Shown in pieces: positions 16,681-63,343 of a stretch of DNA of 64,000 nt. Source of the stretch: Patescibacteria group bacterium (GTDB lineage Bacteria; Patescibacteriota; Microgenomatia; 2-02-FULL-39-11); NCBI GenBank assembly GCA_023379265.1, contig JAMCUI010000011.1, positions 4,030 to 68,029 of the forward strand, written 5' to 3'. Every line of letters starts with the position of its first letter. Positions within the stretch are counted from its first letter, which is position 1. Made by a program: the position numbers and the translations under genes. The notes beneath the pieces are model-generated. The model was not told where the DNA came from. It did not search any database and saw only the letters and a list, made by a program, of their open reading frames with translations.

Positions 16681-16753
16681 GGGCTCGTGGTGTAGCGGTT
16701 AACATGTCGCCCTGTCGAGGCGAAGACCGCCGGTTCGAATCCGGTCGAGCCCG
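16681..16753 (+). tRNA. tRNA-Asp(GTC)
   Basis: Acceptor GGGCTCG/CGAGCCC, anticodon arm TCGCC-CTGTCGA-GGCGA, GGTTCGAATCC T-arm. Confidence 0.95.
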
Positions 16754-16812
16754 CCTTCGTCTCGCCGTAGCTCGACTTCGGCGAGGCAAGCCCGCTAAAA
16801 GAGCGGAGGCGG
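16750..16812. repeat. GC-rich REP-like hairpin element, copy A, at the tRNA-Asp 3' end
   Basis: CTCGCCG...CGGCGAG stem flanked by duplicated CCCGC. Contains the reverse complement of GCGGGCTTGCCTCGCCG, also at 18795 and 60829. Confidence 0.75.
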
Positions 16813-16892: not shown

Positions 16893-17453
16893 ATGTGGAA
16901 AAAATACCTAAAACAGTTGAGTATGCCGGAATCATACATATCAATCACTTTGGGATTTCTCGTAGTAGTTGTCGCCGGTCTTCTTTTTTACAACTACATA
17001 AACCGTACAAGAACCGGGACTTCCATGCAAAATAGCGGCAACACTACTACAGGACAACAGGCGGCAAAGGAGCAAAAGATGGATTTGCCCACAACCCATG
17101 CAGTGGCAGCAGGCGAGACACTCTGGTCCATAGCACAGAAATATTACAATTCCGGATACAATTGGGTGACCATAGCCCGCGCCAACAACCTGGCAAATCC
17201 GGACATGATAGAGGAAGGACAGAAACTTGATTTACCCAAAGCAGATACTATTACCCCTCCGGCAGCAGGGGAAGTATCATCGGCAGGTATCACTCCGGCT
17301 ACATCCTATACGGTAGTACACGGTGATGACCTGTGGAACATAGCGGTCAGGGAATATGGTGACGGTTTTGCCTGGACCAAAATTGCTAAAGCCAACAACC
17401 TGGTAAATCCCAATCTTATACATGCCGGAAATGTACTGAAATTGCCAAGATAA
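16893..17453 (+). CDS. Membrane-anchored protein with two LysM domains
   Basis: N-terminal TM helix; HAVAAGETLWSIA..YY and YTVVHGDDLWNIA LysM repeats. Confidence 0.9.
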   Translation: MWKKYLKQLSMPESYISITLGFLVVVVAGLLFYNYINRTRTGTSMQNSGNTTTGQQAAKEQKMDLPTTHAVAAGETLWSIAQKYYNSGYNWVTIARANNLANPDMIEEGQKLDLPKADTITPPAAGEVSSAGITPATSYTVVHGDDLWNIAVREYGDGFAWTKIAKANNLVNPNLIHAGNVLKLPR

Positions 17454-17506: not shown

Positions 17507-18694
17507 TTAACGTGCAAAACGGTTTATGACGTATCCCCTCACTTTCGATACCGGCTTTTCTACTATGAAGTATGTTGCTACAGATACTAATACGGTGATC
17601 AAAAACGCAGGTATGGCCTTTTGGAGAAAAACTGCCCAAGAAGTCACATCGTAATTGGTAAAGCCGAATATATCTATCACGGCTTTATGCCAAATATAAA
17701 TTTCAAAAGATAAAATACCGACAATTTCAAAAAGTCTGACCGGTTTCCCCATTACACTCTTTACACTCAATTTTATCCTCTTTTTGTAAGCGCTATATTT
17801 TTCCAGTGTTTCAAAATAAACGATATACCAACCAGTCACTAGACACGCTAAAAATGGCAACGTATATGTAACTGCCTCACGGTAACTGGAAAACCGGGAG
17901 TATACAAAAATTGTATTGTAGTTGGCAAAAAAATATAAAAATAATAGAGATAAAATCGTCACTACCATTCCCAAAAGATTTCCGTGCAATCTATTCCAAA
18001 ATTTTGCGGATGCATTTTTTTTAACTCCCCTTACGATGAGATTTAAGAAAAAACCAAAAAGGAATATATCCAAATTCGCCACAAGTGGAGTATATACATG
18101 CACGCTATAACTCTCAGCATTCCACACAACACCATGAACTGTGATATAGGCGCGTATAGCAAAACCCAGTATTAAGATAGCTTCACCTGCCAAGATCGAA
18201 AGGGTAAGTCTCTTCTCAATAAAAGAAAAGAGAGCAAAAAAAATAGGTACCAAAAGAAAAAACTGCATCTCTGTGGAAACAGTCCAAATAGGGGAATTAA
18301 AGTTTGCTATGGGGTAAAAATCAGTCTGTCGAAACGTCAGAAGATTTATAAAAACCGGCAATCTGTCGCGAAGAAAAGCAGGATATATAAAAATGGCAAG
18401 GAATAAAATATTCAGATAGTAAGCCGGTGCTATCCGTAAAAACCGGCTGAGATAAAAACGCATTATACCCGCCTTTGTCAGTGCATAGCGGCCGATAAAA
18501 AATATTTTGCCCATGAGGTATCCCGAAAGGATAAAAAATACCCATACAGCGGCAAGCCCGGAGGGAAACGTAATCCAGCTGAAGTTAATCCCTTTTATGA
18601 CTAAGTAATATTTGGGCGGGCCTATATGCCAAAAGAAAACAGCAAGGCAGGCCAATCCGCGAAGAATAAGAAGAGGATCCGCTTTGTTCTGCAT
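17507..18694 (-). CDS. Acyltransferase family 3 (OafA-like) membrane protein
   Basis: LRGLACLAVFFWH, VFFILSGY, RFLRIAPAY, WTVSTEMQF, VEKP. Confidence 0.9.
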   Translation of the reverse strand: MQNKADPLLILRGLACLAVFFWHIGPPKYYLVIKGINFSWITFPSGLAAVWVFFILSGYLMGKIFFIGRYALTKAGIMRFYLSRFLRIAPAYYLNILFLAIFIYPAFLRDRLPVFINLLTFRQTDFYPIANFNSPIWTVSTEMQFFLLVPIFFALFSFIEKRLTLSILAGEAILILGFAIRAYITVHGVVWNAESYSVHVYTPLVANLDIFLFGFFLNLIVRGVKKNASAKFWNRLHGNLLGMVVTILSLLFLYFFANYNTIFVYSRFSSYREAVTYTLPFLACLVTGWYIVYFETLEKYSAYKKRIKLSVKSVMGKPVRLFEIVGILSFEIYIWHKAVIDIFGFTNYDVTSWAVFLQKAIPAFLITVLVSVATYFIVEKPVSKVRGYVINRFAR

Positions 18695-18793
18695 AGGAAA
18701 ATCAAACTATTATACATTCTTATCATTTTCACTGATATAATGAAATACTCCTAGCAGGTTACAGATTTGATATAATAAAAGCAGAAAGTTTTT

Positions 18794-18830
18794 GGCGGGC
18801 TTGCCTCGCCGTAGCTTTAGCGTAGGCGGG
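18794..18830 (+). repeat. REP-like element, copy B, flanked by duplicated GGCGGG
   Basis: GGCGGG-cttgcctcgccgtagctttagcgta-GGCGGG. Confidence 0.75.
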
Positions 18831-18859
18831 ATTAGTACACCGGTAGTATGCGTCCTTCC
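18826..18859 (+). pseudogene. Orphan 5' half of a tRNA-Gly, broken in the anticodon loop
   Basis: GCGGGAT-TA-GTAC-ACCGGTA-GTAT-G-CGTCC-TTCC parallels the intact tRNA-Gly at 19023; no matching 3' half follows. Confidence 0.65.
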
Positions 18860-53701: not shown

Positions 53702-53749
53702 AACATAATAAATATAGGGTTTAGAGCAAAATAAGCCTAACCCTATCTC

Positions 53750-53888
53750 TTCTTTCTTTTATCCCGACTTTACGGTCGCTACCGGAGTTGCACCGGTTCA
53801 TGTCCGATTTTATATCAGACTCGTAGAGTTTAACTACCGATTGGGAATTTTCCGCTTGATGCGCAATCACCCATACCCCGAAAGAATA
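53750..53888 (-). ncRNA. FMN riboswitch
   Basis: UUCGGGG.AUGGGUGA...AAUUCCCAAUCGGUAG...CCGGUGCAACUCCGG...CGACCGUAAAGUCGGGAU; promoter TTGACA-17-TAATAT at 53922-53894. Confidence 0.92.
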
Positions 53889-53981
53889 AGTAGATATTAT
53901 CTTTTATCAACTAGTCTGTCAAGTAAGTGCAGATGCATTTATACCCTCACGCACTGAGAAATTTCCTCAGAAATTTCGAAG

Positions 53982-57691: not shown

Positions 57692-60679
57692 TTATAACTT
57701 TTCTACGCTTAAAACAGTTCCTCTTTTTAATTCTCCAGCCAATGTTTCTTTCTTTATATATTCCTCAAATCCATCAGGAAAATTCTTGTCGGGAAGAGTA
57801 ACTTTTACTTCTTCTGTTAGAGAGCATCCCAATTCTTTCCTTTTTATCTGAATCTGTCTTACAAATTCTCTAGCTTGACCTTCAAGAAGGAGGTCTTGAG
57901 AGATTTTTGTATCTAATTCCACTAGCAAATTCTCTTTCCCTGGTTTTATCTCTACTGATTTTATATTCAACTCGTCTTTTATAAGACTAACAAACTCACT
58001 ATCGTCAGTCATTAATAAATCTGTGTATACAGTAATAAGTCGCAATGGCTGCCGAACTTTTATATTCTGCGCTTTCCTCTGGGCATGTCCCAGTTCCACA
58101 ATACTTCTTACTTCAGCCATTTTCTTTTCCAACTTATCACTTATTAGACTTGCGTCCGGTTGTGGCCAATCGGATAAATGTACGGATAGTTCGTCTGTGA
58201 TATTGATATAAATTGACTCTGAAAGATAAGGATTAAATGGAGCAAGAAGACGAGAAAATATTGATAAAATATTATAAGTGACCGTATAAAACGAATTTTT
58301 GTCGTCAAGAGATGTTACCCCTTTCCCCACCCGGCTACGACTTCTCCTTATATACCATAAAGACAGATCGGATATGAAATCTTCCATTAAAATGGCGCCA
58401 GTACTTGCATCAAAATTTATAAGGTTTTTTGTCACGGCTTTAACAAGTCTATTAAGCCTTGAAAGAATCCAAAGATCAAGAACGGTGTAATTTACCTTCA
58501 CTCTGGAAGCATTATTGTGTTCTTTGGACGTCCAACCATCAATATTTGCATAGGTAATAAAAAAGTTATAAATATTCCATAAAAGCAGATGGAATCTCCT
58601 TCTTGTTTCGTCAGCAGTCCGGTATCCGAATAAAAGATTCATAGTCGGCTTTTGGGTAACATACATCCAACGCATCACATCTACACCTATTTTCCCAGCT
58701 GCTTCATTGAATTCTATAGCGTTTCCCCAAGATTTATGCATCGGACGTCCGTCTTCACCCAATACCGAAGCGTATCCCAATACCGAGCAGAAAGGATTTT
58801 TTTTCTCAAGAACCGTAGACATGGCGATCATTGAATAAAACCAGTTTTTGAACTGACCCGGGAATGATTCAGTGATAAAATCTGCTGGAAACCACTCTCT
58901 CCAATATTTTTTATCAGACGTATAACTCAATTTATTGCTTTTGGGATCAATAAGTGTGGAAAAAGGCACAATCCCAGCGTCAAGCCAGACATTTCCTACA
59001 TCATCAAGCCTGGACACATTTTTACCACATTTATCACATTTGATCTTTACGCTATCAATGTATGGTTTATGCGGACTGTGACCTTCAAAATCTTCCCAAC
59101 CTTCTATTGCTTTTTCCTTCAACTCTTCTTTACTACCGATAACCGTAAAATATCCGCAGTTGCTACATTCATAGATTGGAAGAGCCAATCCCCAATACCT
59201 GTTCTTTTTGCTTATGAGCCAGTCGTGCATATTCTGCAACCAGTCCAGTTCCCGCTCAAGGCCAAAATCCGGAATCCACCGGATCATCTTTGCTGTTTTT
59301 ATCATCTGCTGTCTCAGCGTCCTGTCTTTTGCTCCTTTTTTTAACCCTTTCTCTTCCTTGTCCATCGAGATATACCATTCATCAGCCACCTTCCAGACCA
59401 ATTCAGTCTTGCATCTCCAGCAGGCCGGATAACGGTGCTTATAAGGGAAAATCCTGAATACCCACTTTCCTTCTTTTTCTTCCCGTTTTTTCAGATAATC
59501 AAGGATTATTCCGGGGTTTTTCTTGGCGTTTTTACCGCTAAACTCGCCGAATCCGCCAATATAATCGGCATTATCCGCAATAACGGGAATCATCGGTAGA
59601 CCCAATTTTTTACCCAGCTTGAAATCCTCCTCGCCGGCTGATACTGCTGTATGCACCATTCCGGTTCCTTCACTCATGGAAATAGGCATTAAAAGCGGAT
59701 CGGTCGGGATAACTGTGTGGAATTTTTCGGGGTTTTCATCTCGTGCTTTCTCAACCGCCTGCAAACCGTCAAAAGCACTTTGGTACCGCAAACCGACCAG
59801 TTCTTTTCCCCTGACTGTTTTTACTATTTTCTTTCCAAAATCCTTAAATATCTGGTCAACCAAAGTTGACGCCAGCCAGTATTTCTGTTCCCGCCCGCTT
59901 ATATCCGAAGAGACTAACGTATAATCTGATTCCGTATCTACGGCAACGGCGATATTGGCAATAATTGTCCAGGGGGTAGTCGTCCATACAAGCAGAAATT
60001 CGTCTTTGGCATCCGCAAGAGGGAACTTCATTATGACTGATTCATGAGTCAACTCCTTATAATCCTCAGTCAGCATCTCATGTTGGGATATTGCCGTCTC
60101 GCATCTGGGACACCACGGCACGCTTTCCCTGCCTTTATAAACCCATCCTTTGTCAAAACAGGTTCTGAGGAAATGCCATATCATGTAATTATTCTCATCC
60201 GACATAGTAAAGTATGAATTGTTCCAATTCATAAAATACCCTAATTTTTGACTTTGTTCGGACTGTATTTTACTAAACCGTTTCACTCTTTCTTTACATA
60301 ACTCCACAAATTTAGCAACACTTGCTTTCTTATCACCTGGAACAAGATTTTCTATATCTCTTTTGTTGCGTATACCCAATTCCTTCTCCACTTCAACCTC
60401 AATCCACAAGCCCTGGCAATCAAAACCGTTCTGGAAACGTTCCTTATAACCCCTCATGTTAAAAAACTTTTGCCATAAGTCTTTATATGTCCTACCCCAA
60501 GCATGATGTACTCCCATAGGGTTATTGGCCGTGATAGGCCCATCTATAAAGGAGAATCTTTTTTTTGAACCGTCATTTCTTCGGAGATATTTCTCGATGA
60601 CACCGTTTTTAATCCAATACTCATAGATGCTCTTCTCAAGCTCAGGAAAGCTTACTTTTGTATTGACATTTTTGAACAT
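57692..60679 (-). CDS. ileS: Isoleucyl-tRNA synthetase type 2
   Basis: DGPITAN..GVHH, WTTTPWT, DWLIS..RYWG, PMHKS, IleRS2-type C-terminus (EGQAREFVRQIQ..RK). Confidence 0.93.
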   Translation of the reverse strand: MFKNVNTKVSFPELEKSIYEYWIKNGVIEKYLRRNDGSKKRFSFIDGPITANNPMGVHHAWGRTYKDLWQKFFNMRGYKERFQNGFDCQGLWIEVEVEKELGIRNKRDIENLVPGDKKASVAKFVELCKERVKRFSKIQSEQSQKLGYFMNWNNSYFTMSDENNYMIWHFLRTCFDKGWVYKGRESVPWCPRCETAISQHEMLTEDYKELTHESVIMKFPLADAKDEFLLVWTTTPWTIIANIAVAVDTESDYTLVSSDISGREQKYWLASTLVDQIFKDFGKKIVKTVRGKELVGLRYQSAFDGLQAVEKARDENPEKFHTVIPTDPLLMPISMSEGTGMVHTAVSAGEEDFKLGKKLGLPMIPVIADNADYIGGFGEFSGKNAKKNPGIILDYLKKREEKEGKWVFRIFPYKHRYPACWRCKTELVWKVADEWYISMDKEEKGLKKGAKDRTLRQQMIKTAKMIRWIPDFGLERELDWLQNMHDWLISKKNRYWGLALPIYECSNCGYFTVIGSKEELKEKAIEGWEDFEGHSPHKPYIDSVKIKCDKCGKNVSRLDDVGNVWLDAGIVPFSTLIDPKSNKLSYTSDKKYWREWFPADFITESFPGQFKNWFYSMIAMSTVLEKKNPFCSVLGYASVLGEDGRPMHKSWGNAIEFNEAAGKIGVDVMRWMYVTQKPTMNLLFGYRTADETRRRFHLLLWNIYNFFITYANIDGWTSKEHNNASRVKVNYTVLDLWILSRLNRLVKAVTKNLINFDASTGAILMEDFISDLSLWYIRRSRSRVGKGVTSLDDKNSFYTVTYNILSIFSRLLAPFNPYLSESIYINITDELSVHLSDWPQPDASLISDKLEKKMAEVRSIVELGHAQRKAQNIKVRQPLRLITVYTDLLMTDDSEFVSLIKDELNIKSVEIKPGKENLLVELDTKISQDLLLEGQAREFVRQIQIKRKELGCSLTEEVKVTLPDKNFPDGFEEYIKKETLAGELKRGTVLSVEKL

Positions 60680-60803
60680 AAACTCTATTTTACACAAAAA
60701 ATCCCACCTTTGAAAGCACTTCACCTGTAGTTCAGTGCCGGTGAGATTTAGATAATTATTCCGATAATTTTCAGATTTATCTTTTTTATCATTTAGTTAC
60801 TTA

Positions 60804-60888
60804 TTAATGTTTCCCCTGCCTTAAGAATGCGGGCTTGCCTCGCCGTATTGCGGTAAAATCAATGTTTACCTTGTCGCAAGAAGGCGGG
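60804..60888 (-). repeat. Duplicated ftsZ 3' end (PAFLRQGKH*) separated by REP-like element copy C
   Basis: 60888-60859 and 60833-60804 encode the same 9 aa plus stop; GCGGGCTTGCCTCGCCGTA at 60829-60847. Confidence 0.85.
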
Positions 60889-61992
60889 GATATCCCAGTC
60901 ATCTTCTTCAGGAGGCACGTTATCATCTTGCTGTTGCGGCTGGTTTGAACTGACAGCAACACTTGAAGATGGGATTGACATGTCTTCGCGCATTACCGGA
61001 GATTCCATTTTTGCAGACAGTTCCTTTAATCTTTTCTTTGTTTCGTCAAACCCGGTCGCAATTACTGTAATTTTTACCTGATCAACCATTTGTTCGTCGA
61101 TTGTCGCCCCAAAAATTATATTAGCATCAGGATCCACCGAGGCAGCAATTAATTTAGAGGCTTCATCCACCTCATTCATCGTCAGATCAGATCCACCAGT
61201 AATATTGTAAAGTACACCTTTTGCCCCATCAATTGACAATTCCAGAAGAGGCGATGAGATTGCCATCCTAGCAGCGGCTGAAGCCCTGTTTTCTCCTACC
61301 CCAGTCCCAATTCCCATCAGTGCACTCCCCGCATTACTCATAATAGTCCTCACATCGGCAAAATCTACATTTATTAAGCCAGGCAGAGTGATCAGATCGG
61401 AAATACCCGTAACTCCTTGACCTAGAACAGAATCGACAATCTTGAACGCTTCAACGAGTGTCATTTTTTTATCCACTACATCCAAAATTCTCTGGTTAGG
61501 TATAACAATAAGAGTATCCACTTTCTCCTTGAGATTGAGAATTCCTTCTTCTGCTGCCAGCATCCTTCTTGTTCCTTCAAAAGCAAAAGGTTTTGTGACC
61601 ACAGCTACAGTAAGAGCTCCAATCTCTCTCGCAACTTCTGCAATAATTGGTGTCGCACCGGTTCCGGTACCTCCACCCTCTCCACACGTCAAAAAAACCA
61701 TGTCAGTCTCTAAAAGAAACTCTTTTATCTTTTCCCGGGATTCCTCTGCAGACTGTTTGCCAATTTCGGGGTTTCCACCAGCACCAAGCCCTTTGGTTAT
61801 ATCATCACCAATCTGTATTTTAACTTGAGCAGCACATGTCAATAATGCTTGAGCATCTGTATTAACACCTATAAAATCCACGCCCTGTATAGTGGAAGCA
61901 GCAATCATAGAATTAATTGCGTTACATCCGCCACCACCGATACCGATAACTTTTATTTTGGCAAAACGCGCAATATCAGGTTTGATCAACAT
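60859..61992 (-). CDS. ftsZ: Cell division protein FtsZ
   Basis: GGGGCNA, GGGTGTG, NVDFAD, C-terminal DIPAFLR. Confidence 0.98.
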
Positions 61993-62032: not shown

Positions 62033-63343
62033 TTAGGGTAAAAAAGATTTTACCAGATCGACTACTCTTCCAGCAACGCCTTGTATGGGCACTTTTCCCA
62101 CTATCTTTGTCAGTCTATTCAGATTGAACTTTTCCTTCATCACTACTCCTGTTTTTGAAGCATAAATTACAAGTCCAGAAGCCGTTGCGTAGGTAGGAGT
62201 AATGATTTCGTCCACCAACCCCGTAATGTTGGCCGGTACTCCAACTCTCACCTGCATCGCAAGATTTCTTTTGGCGGTTTCCACTATTCCCAAAGTTTCT
62301 GATCCTCCTCCGGTAATAACAATTCCTGCAGGTGTTAATCCTCCAAAACCGCTCTTTTTTATCTCAAGTCCTATCATGGTAAATACTTCATTCAATCGCG
62401 GTCTTATGATACCTTCTATCAAGGTTTTTCTAGATACCTTGTTTAGTCCTTCAGGTAAATGCAGATTTGATAAATCCATACTGTCATGATCGTCTTTCTC
62501 TTTACCTTTTTTTGTATTATCGGACAGTATTGACTGCGGAAGCGTCATCTCTGGTTCCTTCTTATTTAGTGCTAGTTTAATTTTCTCCGCACTTTCTAAA
62601 GAAATTCTCAAACCTATAGCCAGATCATTTGTTATATTTCTCGCACCTACAGGTAAAACAGATGAATATGAAAGTGAACCATCTACAAACATACAAATAT
62701 CGGTCGTTCCTCCACCTATATCAACCAATACCACTCCTAACTCTTTTTCCGTTTCTGTTAGTACAGCTGTACTAGATGCTAACCCACCAAAGACAAATCC
62801 GTCTACATCAATCCCTACTAACGACGCGCATTTTTCCAGGTTACGAAGAGCGGTTCCTCCAGTAGTAATAATATGAGTGTTCACCTCAAGCCTGACACCG
62901 GTCATCCCCACGGGATCCTTTATTCCCTCTTGTGAATCCACGATAAATTCTCTTGGAAGAACATGAAGGATTTCTCGGGTTGAAGGAAGATTGACCGCTC
63001 TAGCCGCCTCCACAGCTCGATTTATATCTTCTGGTGTAATTTCTTTTTGTGGCTCGGCAACAGCCACTACTCCATGGGAATTTTGAGACATGATATGCGC
63101 ACCACCCACTGATAGAAATGCTGAGGAGATGGAATAACCCGCCATCCTTTCTGAGGCTTCAAGACTTTCAACAATAGCTGCAGTTGACTCTTCTATATCG
63201 ACTATTTGGCCTTTTCTGATTCCTCTGCTTTTTACACTCGCCACTCCCATCACATTTACAGTGCCCTCTTCGCTCACAGAAGCTATAATAGTGGTAATTT
63301 TTGTTGTACCGATGTCTATTCCGGCAACTATTCTTTTACTCAT
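62033..63343 (-). CDS. ftsA: Cell division protein FtsA
   Basis: DIGTTKI, DIGGGTTD, ITNDLA, TGGGS. Confidence 0.96.
   Translation of the reverse strand: MSKRIVAGIDIGTTKITTIIASVSEEGTVNVMGVASVKSRGIRKGQIVDIEESTAAIVESLEASERMAGYSISSAFLSVGGAHIMSQNSHGVVAVAEPQKEITPEDINRAVEAARAVNLPSTREILHVLPREFIVDSQEGIKDPVGMTGVRLEVNTHIITTGGTALRNLEKCASLVGIDVDGFVFGGLASSTAVLTETEKELGVVLVDIGGGTTDICMFVDGSLSYSSVLPVGARNITNDLAIGLRISLESAEKIKLALNKKEPEMTLPQSILSDNTKKGKEKDDHDSMDLSNLHLPEGLNKVSRKTLIEGIIRPRLNEVFTMIGLEIKKSGFGGLTPAGIVITGGGSETLGIVETAKRNLAMQVRVGVPANITGLVDEIITPTYATASGLVIYASKTGVVMKEKFNLNRLTKIVGKVPIQGVAGRVVDLVKSFLP

Follow-up and report, generated by a model that had tools for sequence, protein, structure and literature searches.

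The window analysed here, a stretch of 64,000 nucleotides, belongs to a 1.53-Mb genome (G000, 93.7% complete), and the genome of a sister species (G001) served for close comparison. On the minus strand, ftsA is followed by ftsZ and then by ileS. A Pfam scan identified the ftsZ product with confidence (PF00091, Tubulin, 2.4e-47; PF12327, FtsZ_C, 4.1e-36). FtsZ of G000 is 99% identical to that of G001, and its D-I-P-A-F-L-R motif is kept in 30 relatives. The features around the end of the gene are as follows.

62033-63343, minus strand: ftsA, confirmed by Pfam
60859..61992, minus strand: ftsZ coding sequence, 377 aa, intact (ORF and Pfam)
60887..60896, minus strand: perfect 10-nt palindrome in the Trp-Asp-Ile-Pro codons just 5' of CCCGC, read from the sequence
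60859..60888, minus strand: copy 1, the translated codons of the C-terminal peptide PAFLRQGKH with TGA
60834..60858, minus strand: 25-nt spacer between copies 1 and 2
60829..60844, minus strand: 16-mer hairpin core, bridging the end of the spacer and CCCGC (the first five bases) of copy 2, the junction
60804..60833, minus strand: copy 2, PAFLRQGKH with TAA, behind the ftsZ stop and in the +1 frame relative to ftsZ
57692..60679, minus strand: ileS, the native downstream neighbour of ftsZ, with its ATG at 60679 (Pfam tRNA-synt_1, 2.5e-74)

A repeat search reported two copies of 31 nt, 77% identical and 55 nt apart, together with overlapping palindrome arms at 60887..60896; as a speculative reading of the sequence, this palindrome may be a candidate core-type site. 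Coordinates and codon comparison confirmed the description in the earlier note of a peptide end present twice with seven synonymous differences in 30 bp: copies 1 and 2 differ at 7/30 bases and all seven differences are silent, one of them exchanging one stop for another. By codon-table count, the peptide and a stop survive 20 of the 90 single-base changes possible in copy 1, giving an estimated chance of p ~3e-5 that seven random changes would all be silent. Neither cargo nor an integrase was found beside the site in the window, and there is no ORF between the two copies; the nearest extra integrase of G000 is on a separate contig (C20).

The 3' part of the 25-nt spacer supplies the loop and the 5' arm of a G+C-rich hairpin of REP-like form. 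The 16-mer can fold with a CAAG loop, its 3' arm being the Pro-Ala codons of copy 2. It has three exact copies in the 1.53-Mb genome, all three inside the window, with ~7e-4 expected by chance (estimate), and on this count the earlier note's term for the spacer, "REP-derived", was a fair one. The two other units are:

16756..16796, plus strand: second REP-like unit, abutting the 3' end of tRNA-Asp (16681-16755), with CCCGCC and CCCGC on its flanks
18790..18835, minus strand: third REP-like unit, built as CCCGCC, 14 nt, hairpin and CCCGCC; an acyltransferase-like ORF lies downstream of it

These two units are inverted, ~2 kb apart and each preceded by CCCGCC, and they bracket a LysM-like ORF (16893-17453) and the acyltransferase-like ORF (17507-18694). 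An FMN riboswitch (RF00050, 71 bits; 53747-53889, minus strand) beside tRNA-Val in the window was ordinary. All hairpin instances begin with CCCGCC, followed by 12-40 nt and then by the hairpin with a CCCGC(C) end; as in REP-type elements, an imperfect hairpin is repeated in intergenic DNA. The hairpin is present in 7/401 genomes of the class. It also occurs in MAGs whose titles name Levyibacteriota, Moranbacteria or other groups, where, among the matches listed, it often lies at tRNA ends. Scanning genome contigs with the 16-mer gave, among the matches listed, mostly chance ones in G+C-rich genomes; ten of the 80 loci retrieved had a G+C content below 0.5, and only two of these were ftsZ cases. 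The last 19 nt of the spacer, its 3' end, are identical in the metagenome locus L193, which represents another genus. A terminator scan called no terminator at the hairpin in G000, and the predicted RNA fold of the ftsZ-end region was ordinary (z = -1.87). A search for a cognate Y1 (RAYT/IS200-like) transposase gave 0 matches to PF01797 in G000; control genomes matched.

To place the window among its relatives, ftsZ loci were taken from 30 of them, and all 21 genomes of the family were scanned for the peptide codons (degenerate 30-mer, <=2 mismatches, combined with the inspected loci). One to three extra ftsZ-end copies were found behind ftsZ in nine of the 21 genomes, with 21 nt to 7.8 kb of DNA separating neighbouring copies; the other 12 had no extra copy matching the degenerate 30-mer pattern. 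The arrangements were:

G000: two copies, period 55
G001: a 7.8-kb insert, then the orthologue of the window tandem, period 54
G007: two copies, period 52
G016: three copies, period 52
G013: four copies, spaced in turn by a period of 52, by 3.4 kb and by 0.7 kb
G017: behind copy 1 and its spacer, a second REP-like unit precedes an interrupted (decayed) copy 2
G019: a 1.28-kb cargo with a PLD-like gene, and a further copy adjoining ileS on a different contig
G014 and G015: displaced copies, with ftsZ truncated or split

ileS also comes after the most distal copy in G014, G015, G019, G007 and G016. Similar tandems occurred outside the family. In L094 (Levyibacteriota), PAFLRQRN-stop is found twice, 46 nt apart, with all differences silent; in L071 a second copy, 47 nt away, has decayed; and L193 has a G000-type spacer with a period of 57, its FtsZ being identical to that of G000 at 303/378 positions. 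The codon version of copy 1, with one to four differences, is linked to the hairpin spacer in three other genera. Hairpin-linked unit copies differ by 1-4 bases between genera, compared with a mean of 5.6 (range 2-10) among eight single-copy ends. A single-copy ftsZ with the hairpin behind it was found neither in the 21 family genomes nor in the ten more distant loci inspected. Assemblies of relatives break within or just behind ftsZ-end repeats (contig C83 end of G014, contig C25 end of G019), and arrays are therefore probably under-counted in draft genomes. A motif of a 7-bp inverted repeat with a 10-nt loop, after which one arm is repeated, lies behind ftsZ ends in three genomes (L173 after copy 2, L175 after the displaced copy, L169 after copy 2'). 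A locus of another family (L026, G021) has an ftsZ ending in …DTPAFLKKH-stop (~2617) and, 112 nt downstream in another frame, …ATPAFLRNSR-stop (~2729); this second end is possibly another displaced one, in a family that is only distantly related. A partial second ftsZ in G001 (contig C119) was set aside as irrelevant, since it lies on a short contig of another organism.

The restriction of differences to silent sites held across these arrays. Nine neighbouring copy pairs from six genomes had 56 differences, 55 of which were synonymous, and the sole replacement was in the most distal copy of G013. Two pairs outside the family, from L094 and the viral record G401 (described below), were likewise silent-only, the latter at all of ~9 differences. 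Divergence of this kind would be expected only where both versions stood under protein-level selection as they diverged, and it excludes in-place duplication followed by drift. The 55/56 silent differences over nine pairs bear out the argument of the earlier note that simple duplication and drift would be inadequate.

The order of events was read from the FtsZ tree and from flanking DNA. The tree left 10/18 inner branches open, together with the base of the family, so that gains and losses were countable for three sister pairs only (G014 and G015, with truncated or split ftsZ, were left out). These three well-supported pairs are discordant for the short unit. Two of them, G017/G002 and G007/G018, are same-genus pairs (support 100/100 and 100/99), and in both the downstream copy of the array-bearing genome matches the single end of its relative at 27/30 positions (background level), whereas the upstream copy differs from it at 10-11/30. 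The downstream flank aligns in the G017/G002 pair, and copies 3 and 4 of G013, the most distal, retain the native downstream flank common to G002 and G017. Since relatives match the downstream copy and distal copies keep the native flank, the most distal copy is the oldest and new ends were added beside the gene. Single-copy alleles in relatives, on which the earlier reading depended, are thus present in G002 and G018; as empty sites they correspond to the distal repeat. That note had also proposed aligning relatives to find which copy is ancestral. The downstream copy is indicated in these two pairs, but the window's own genus is ambiguous: the functional end of G001 differs from copy 1 at five positions plus an indel and from copy 2 at eight plus an indel.

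Several displaced copies have decayed. Copy 2' of G001 has a frameshift and at least two replacements, its copy 1' being intact; copy 2 of G017 is interrupted; the second copy in L071 has three replacements; and copy 4 of G013 and copy 2 of G014 also carry replacements. Copy 2 itself differs between G000 and L193 at three sites, all silent, which could also be read as selection on copy 2. For copy 2 to have stayed intact since before the split of G000 and G001 would need some luck under neutrality, with a probability that we estimate at roughly 0.1-0.3.

The sister genome G001 extended this picture. Its ftsZ has ~95% nucleotide identity to that of G000, and its functional end is different (…GKQH-stop) and is followed by a 7.8-kb insert containing metabolic genes, an IS200-like gene (PF01797, 8e-19) and 61 codons of an integrase N-terminus. 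The orthologous tandem (copy 1', spacer and copy 2') comes after this insert, and the window tandem is hence older than the divergence of the two species. Copy 1' remains intact and has five silent differences, whereas copy 2' has decayed, which implies that copy 2 was already free of selection at a time when copy 1 was not. In sequence, the integrase remnant shares 57% identity with the N-terminal part of the second integrase of G401 (5e-22); it abuts the IS200-like gene and lies ~320 nt from the displaced copy, at the distance and in the orientation relative to the displaced end seen in G401. Together, these sequences demonstrate what was evidently a later reuse of the ftsZ-end site by an integrase-type element in the G001 lineage.

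The viral record G401, a predicted virus (34.7 kb, linear), comes from a related lineage, and no ftsZ was found in it. It contains two ftsZ-end mimics (PAFLRQRN-stop), 5.9 kb apart. Between the mimics lie a PF00589 integrase gene (1.8e-30), with its 3' end toward the proximal mimic and ~350 nt from one mimic, and a gene for an Mrr-like nuclease. A second integrase gene (3.3e-18), HTH genes and a block of large ORFs are found on the other side; from their size and order only, these ORFs look like tailed-phage-like structural genes. Across L180 and L187-L189, G401 encodes two Cro/C1-type HTH proteins, two tyrosine integrases, the Mrr-like nuclease and a DUF2079 membrane protein. The two mimics suggest two elements that may have integrated in tandem. 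No circular element with an attP was seen; G401 itself is linear and possibly represents an array in the integrated state. In the viral scan, which used a degenerate Trp-Asp-Ile-Pro-Ala-Phe pattern, nine of the ten loci were unrelated (G+C ~53%) and one was useful. A recombinase gene beside the repeat is absent from the window, present in G401 (PF00589) and present as a remnant in G001.

Cargo of three sizes separates neighbouring copies: 1.28 kb with a PLD-like gene in G019, 3.4 kb in G013 and 7.8 kb in G001. The earlier note had suggested looking between the copies in other strains for larger cargo, a GIY-YIG gene or an integrase; cargo of 1.3, 3.4 and 7.8 kb was found, as were the integrase of G401 and the remnant of G001, and no GIY-YIG gene was seen. 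The family's own cargo elements are without intact integrases, Pfam finding none in the cargo of G013, G015 or G019. Nuclease-type genes were seen in the cargo of G019 (PLD-like, PF13091, L013:2653-3717, minus strand) and in G401 (Mrr_cat, PF04471, L187:229-714, minus strand), and a MOSC-domain gene in that of G015 (L175:4806-5396, minus strand); there are hints here of defence-type cargo. A conserved arm of ~150 nt, with a TTGACA box and conserved blocks, precedes the cargo-type displaced copies of several genera, in G013, G014, G015 and G019, and partly in G401, and from its sequence may be an outward promoter towards ileS or a set of integrase arm sites. Its positions are:

L173:3413-3562, conserved arm
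L173:4127-4276, conserved arm
L175:4670-4819, minus strand, conserved arm
L176:5747-5896, minus strand, conserved arm
L013:3734-3883, conserved arm

Variation at the site was also apparent within the sampled population. Runs X2 and X3, from two other samples of the study behind the probable source run, are dominated by a strain in which 865 other letters replace 60757-60834, a segment made up of copy 2 and the 47 nt after it; the sequence diverges exactly at the junction (60835). This strain also has two silent changes in copy 1 (60868 and 60871), both towards the codons of copy 2, which look like a conversion patch. The ftsZ-end site is polymorphic in this population. A metagenome scan with an 18-mer of the spacer gave unrelated loci in 30/31 cases and did not recover the 865-nt variant.

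We consider it probable that copy 2 is a former 3' end of ftsZ, displaced at CCCGC by an incoming end with its REP-like spacer, and it is predicted to be untranslated. At the level of sequence, the comparisons establish that a site in the last ftsZ codons has been used repeatedly for insertion across the family, that replacement ends arrive with incoming DNA and former ends stack downstream and decay, and that elements with tyrosine integrases, one of them beside phage genes, are flanked by ftsZ-end mimics. Polarity, cargo and decay all support the proposal of the earlier note that incoming DNA at CCCGC supplied a new 3' end and displaced the old one. Of its two suggestions for the scar, att-like or homing, the former gained support; no GIY-YIG or other homing endonuclease was seen.

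In the mechanism that we propose, the two versions would have diverged silently as working gene ends in separate lineages. The incoming DNA would carry the peptide codons, a stop and the 25-nt REP-like hairpin spacer, and would enter at CCCGC of the Pro-Ala codons. A tyrosine integrase would recombine site-specifically, with an attP that mimics the ftsZ end and a crossover at or near CCCGC. Copy 1 would be the newer, incoming end, having arrived after copy 2 and together with the spacer, and new arrivals would always land beside ftsZ. The cargo-less units of 52-57 nt would be minimal att-flanked relics comparable to cis-mobilizable elements: in composite arrays they would travel with neighbours that carry integrases, and they would remain when these neighbours excise. 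We infer this origin for the cargo-less units, including the arrival of the unit in the window; a unit of 52-57 bp is too small to recombine alone as a double-stranded circle, so its spread would presumably be by hitch-hiking. The relic, copy 2, is probably functionless.

That the tandem is an artefact, with two strain haplotypes of the ftsZ end collapsed in tandem, is scarcely credible. No single Logan contig covers the full tandem stretch, and there are strain variants as well as a branch of the assembly graph inside the spacer. In the probable source run, however, two unitigs overlap by 30 nt inside the spacer, and one of them runs from copy 2 through the complete spacer into the final six bases of copy 1; moreover, the independent assembly of the sister species has the orthologous tandem, and the same architecture recurs in L193, G013, G016, G007, L094 and L071. 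The linking unitig and the sister tandem thus speak against the collapsed haplotypes that the earlier note had named as a danger. In-place tandem duplication, with copy 2 selected and translated through a +1 shift at the stop, through reinitiation or as a small peptide, would account for the 55/56 silent differences, and in G000 the +1 frame is indeed open from 60962 to the end of copy 2; several periods (55, 52, 46) are also 1 mod 3. The frame is nevertheless not kept, the periods of 55, 54, 57, 52, 46 and 47 nt having no common frame, and a frameshift design in which all periods would be 1 mod 3 was ruled out by L193 (57), G001 (54) and L071 (47). A stop closes the +1 frame of G013, G007 and G016 at 11 codons ahead of copy 2, with no start codon after it, and copy 2 has no conserved ORF or frame among relatives. 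Translation of copy 2 is therefore unlikely, and the variable frame relation and the stops in the +1 frame of these three genomes do not fit a programmed +1 frameshift; CAT-TGA, as read from the sequence, also lacks a slippery site. With copies decayed in G001, G017, L071, G013 and G014, and with the relative's single end matching the downstream, not the upstream, copy in two same-genus pairs, we regard selection and translation of a copy made in place as very improbable.

Two further explanations also treat copy 2 as an old end that was displaced, and so leave the core conclusion standing. In one, which we judge unlikely, no integrase took part and the end was exchanged by homology-facilitated illegitimate recombination from a related strain. 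The donor would be an ftsZ with a terminator-like hairpin ~11 nt after its stop, ending in CCCGCC, and the recipient a naive allele; the left junction would lie in the conserved Trp-Asp-Ile-Pro-Ala codons, and the right junction would form by microhomology between the hairpin 3' arm (plus any T run) and the Pro-Ala-Phe-Leu codons. The junction does lie exactly at CCCGC, the hairpin 3' arm; the first 6-11 nt of the 52-nt spacers resemble native post-stop sequence in G002, in copies 3 and 4 of G013 and in G017; a T run follows the hairpin elsewhere (L166); and several ftsZ alleles have CCCGCC followed by TTTTTG, giving up to 11-12 nt of microhomology. A donor-type allele was nonetheless absent from the 21 family genomes and the ten more distant loci inspected, and RecA-type exchange at 72-80% identity would be unlikely to make the unit recur in several genera with both junctions in <=30 nt. 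The model also leaves unexplained why integrase-flanked copies occur at this site. The other explanation, a REP-type miniature element with target CCCGCC that captured the peptide codons and stop and was inserted harmlessly by a REP-specific enzyme, seems improbable. It would fit the hairpins at tRNA ends and in intergenic DNA (two more sites in the window, and L078, L091, L095 and L164-L166), all of which have 12-24 nt between CCCGCC and the hairpin, the second such unit inside the first in G017, and the IS200-like gene in the G001 insert (PF01797, 8e-19). Against it, G000 (93.7% complete) has no PF01797 gene and only three hairpin copies, and the acquisition of lineage-matched peptide variants (RQGKH, RQRN, RQKN) is unexplained. 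The ends of IS200/IS605 elements are not known to be built with a hairpin flush at the junction, whereas here the hairpin is flush with the right junction of the unit. An IS200/IS605 element with a TTGAT-like target at CAT-TGA-T was considered and dropped, as TGA is not universal in the units and G000 has no Y1 gene.

Beyond the displaced end itself, the 52-57-nt block might be a mobile, self-healing cassette, moved in trans by integrases or by a REP-specific enzyme, with the FtsA-binding tail of ftsZ a dedicated, accreting landing pad for defence-type cargo in bacteria of the candidate phyla radiation. We hold this to be doubtful at best; if true, the block would be the smallest known element to carry a replacement for the essential gene end that it interrupts. 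In a bolder form of this idea, displaced copies might occasionally be expressed as free FtsA-binding peptides that modulate division.

Displacement of an old end by an integrating element has a counterpart in Escherichia coli. There, e14 occupies the 3' end of icd and brings a substitute end that leaves the gene intact, icdC at the far side of e14 is the old icd end, a C-terminal pseudogene fragment, and the two ends differ mostly at silent sites (PMC13626634). The ftsZ event likewise concerns a housekeeping protein gene with a replacement end, an old end left downstream and mostly silent differences, and in G000 the end repeats flank 25 nt beside an intact ftsZ, a direct-repeat arrangement of the icd/e14 type. 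Phage 21 reportedly integrates into the icd 3' end as well, and original papers on the system are attributed to Hill et al. The ftsZ case departs from icd/e14 in that its target is the FtsA-binding C-terminal peptide, its host lineage has a small genome and is of the candidate phyla radiation type, no more than 30-55 nt are duplicated, arrays reach up to four ends, the window copies are separated by 25 nt only, and the role of an integrase at the ftsZ end is one that we infer from sequence. The ftsZ case is best read as an event of the icd/e14 type with a new target gene. A full-text search of a limited literature collection found no report of ftsZ as an attachment site.

In Dehalococcoides, genomic islands occur at the tmRNA gene ssrA (PMC3146451). 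Like ssrA and tRNA islands, ftsZ shows repeated integration at one conserved 3' end and serial direct repeats; unlike them, its target is protein-coding and the repeats are constrained at the amino-acid level, which makes the silent-only pattern visible. Repeated integration at the Dehalococcoides ssrA islands is said to leave a series of direct repeats of the gene end. In the accretion-mobilization of streptococcal ICEs, att-flanked DNA without recombination genes (CIMEs) can persist and can move with an incoming integrase-bearing element. The ftsZ-end unit is similar: in the window, two att-type repeats flank DNA without int/xis, and its mobilisation would be of this kind. It is, unlike CIMEs, only 52-57 nt long, and to our knowledge no CIME is nearly as small. 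The spacer resembles REP/BIME sequences in having a short, imperfect hairpin, rich in G+C, that recurs both within the genome and in other lineages and is often beside tRNA genes, but it has only three copies, G000 has no Y1 gene, and one hairpin arm is displaced coding sequence.

These findings add ftsZ, by way of the codons for its partner-binding C-terminal peptide, to the short list of essential protein genes that serve as attachment sites with replacement ends. The silent-only pattern offers a general signature of replacement versus in-place duplication, and blocks of this kind ought to be annotated as relics of displaced gene ends rather than as small ORFs or evidence of frameshifting. 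The arrays are a dated stack of former ends, the newest beside the gene, and could be used to order insertions and to measure neutral decay. The setting is a poorly known small-genome lineage in which mobile elements and phage integration are little described, and where a conserved stretch encoding an essential peptide offers elements a safe landing place.
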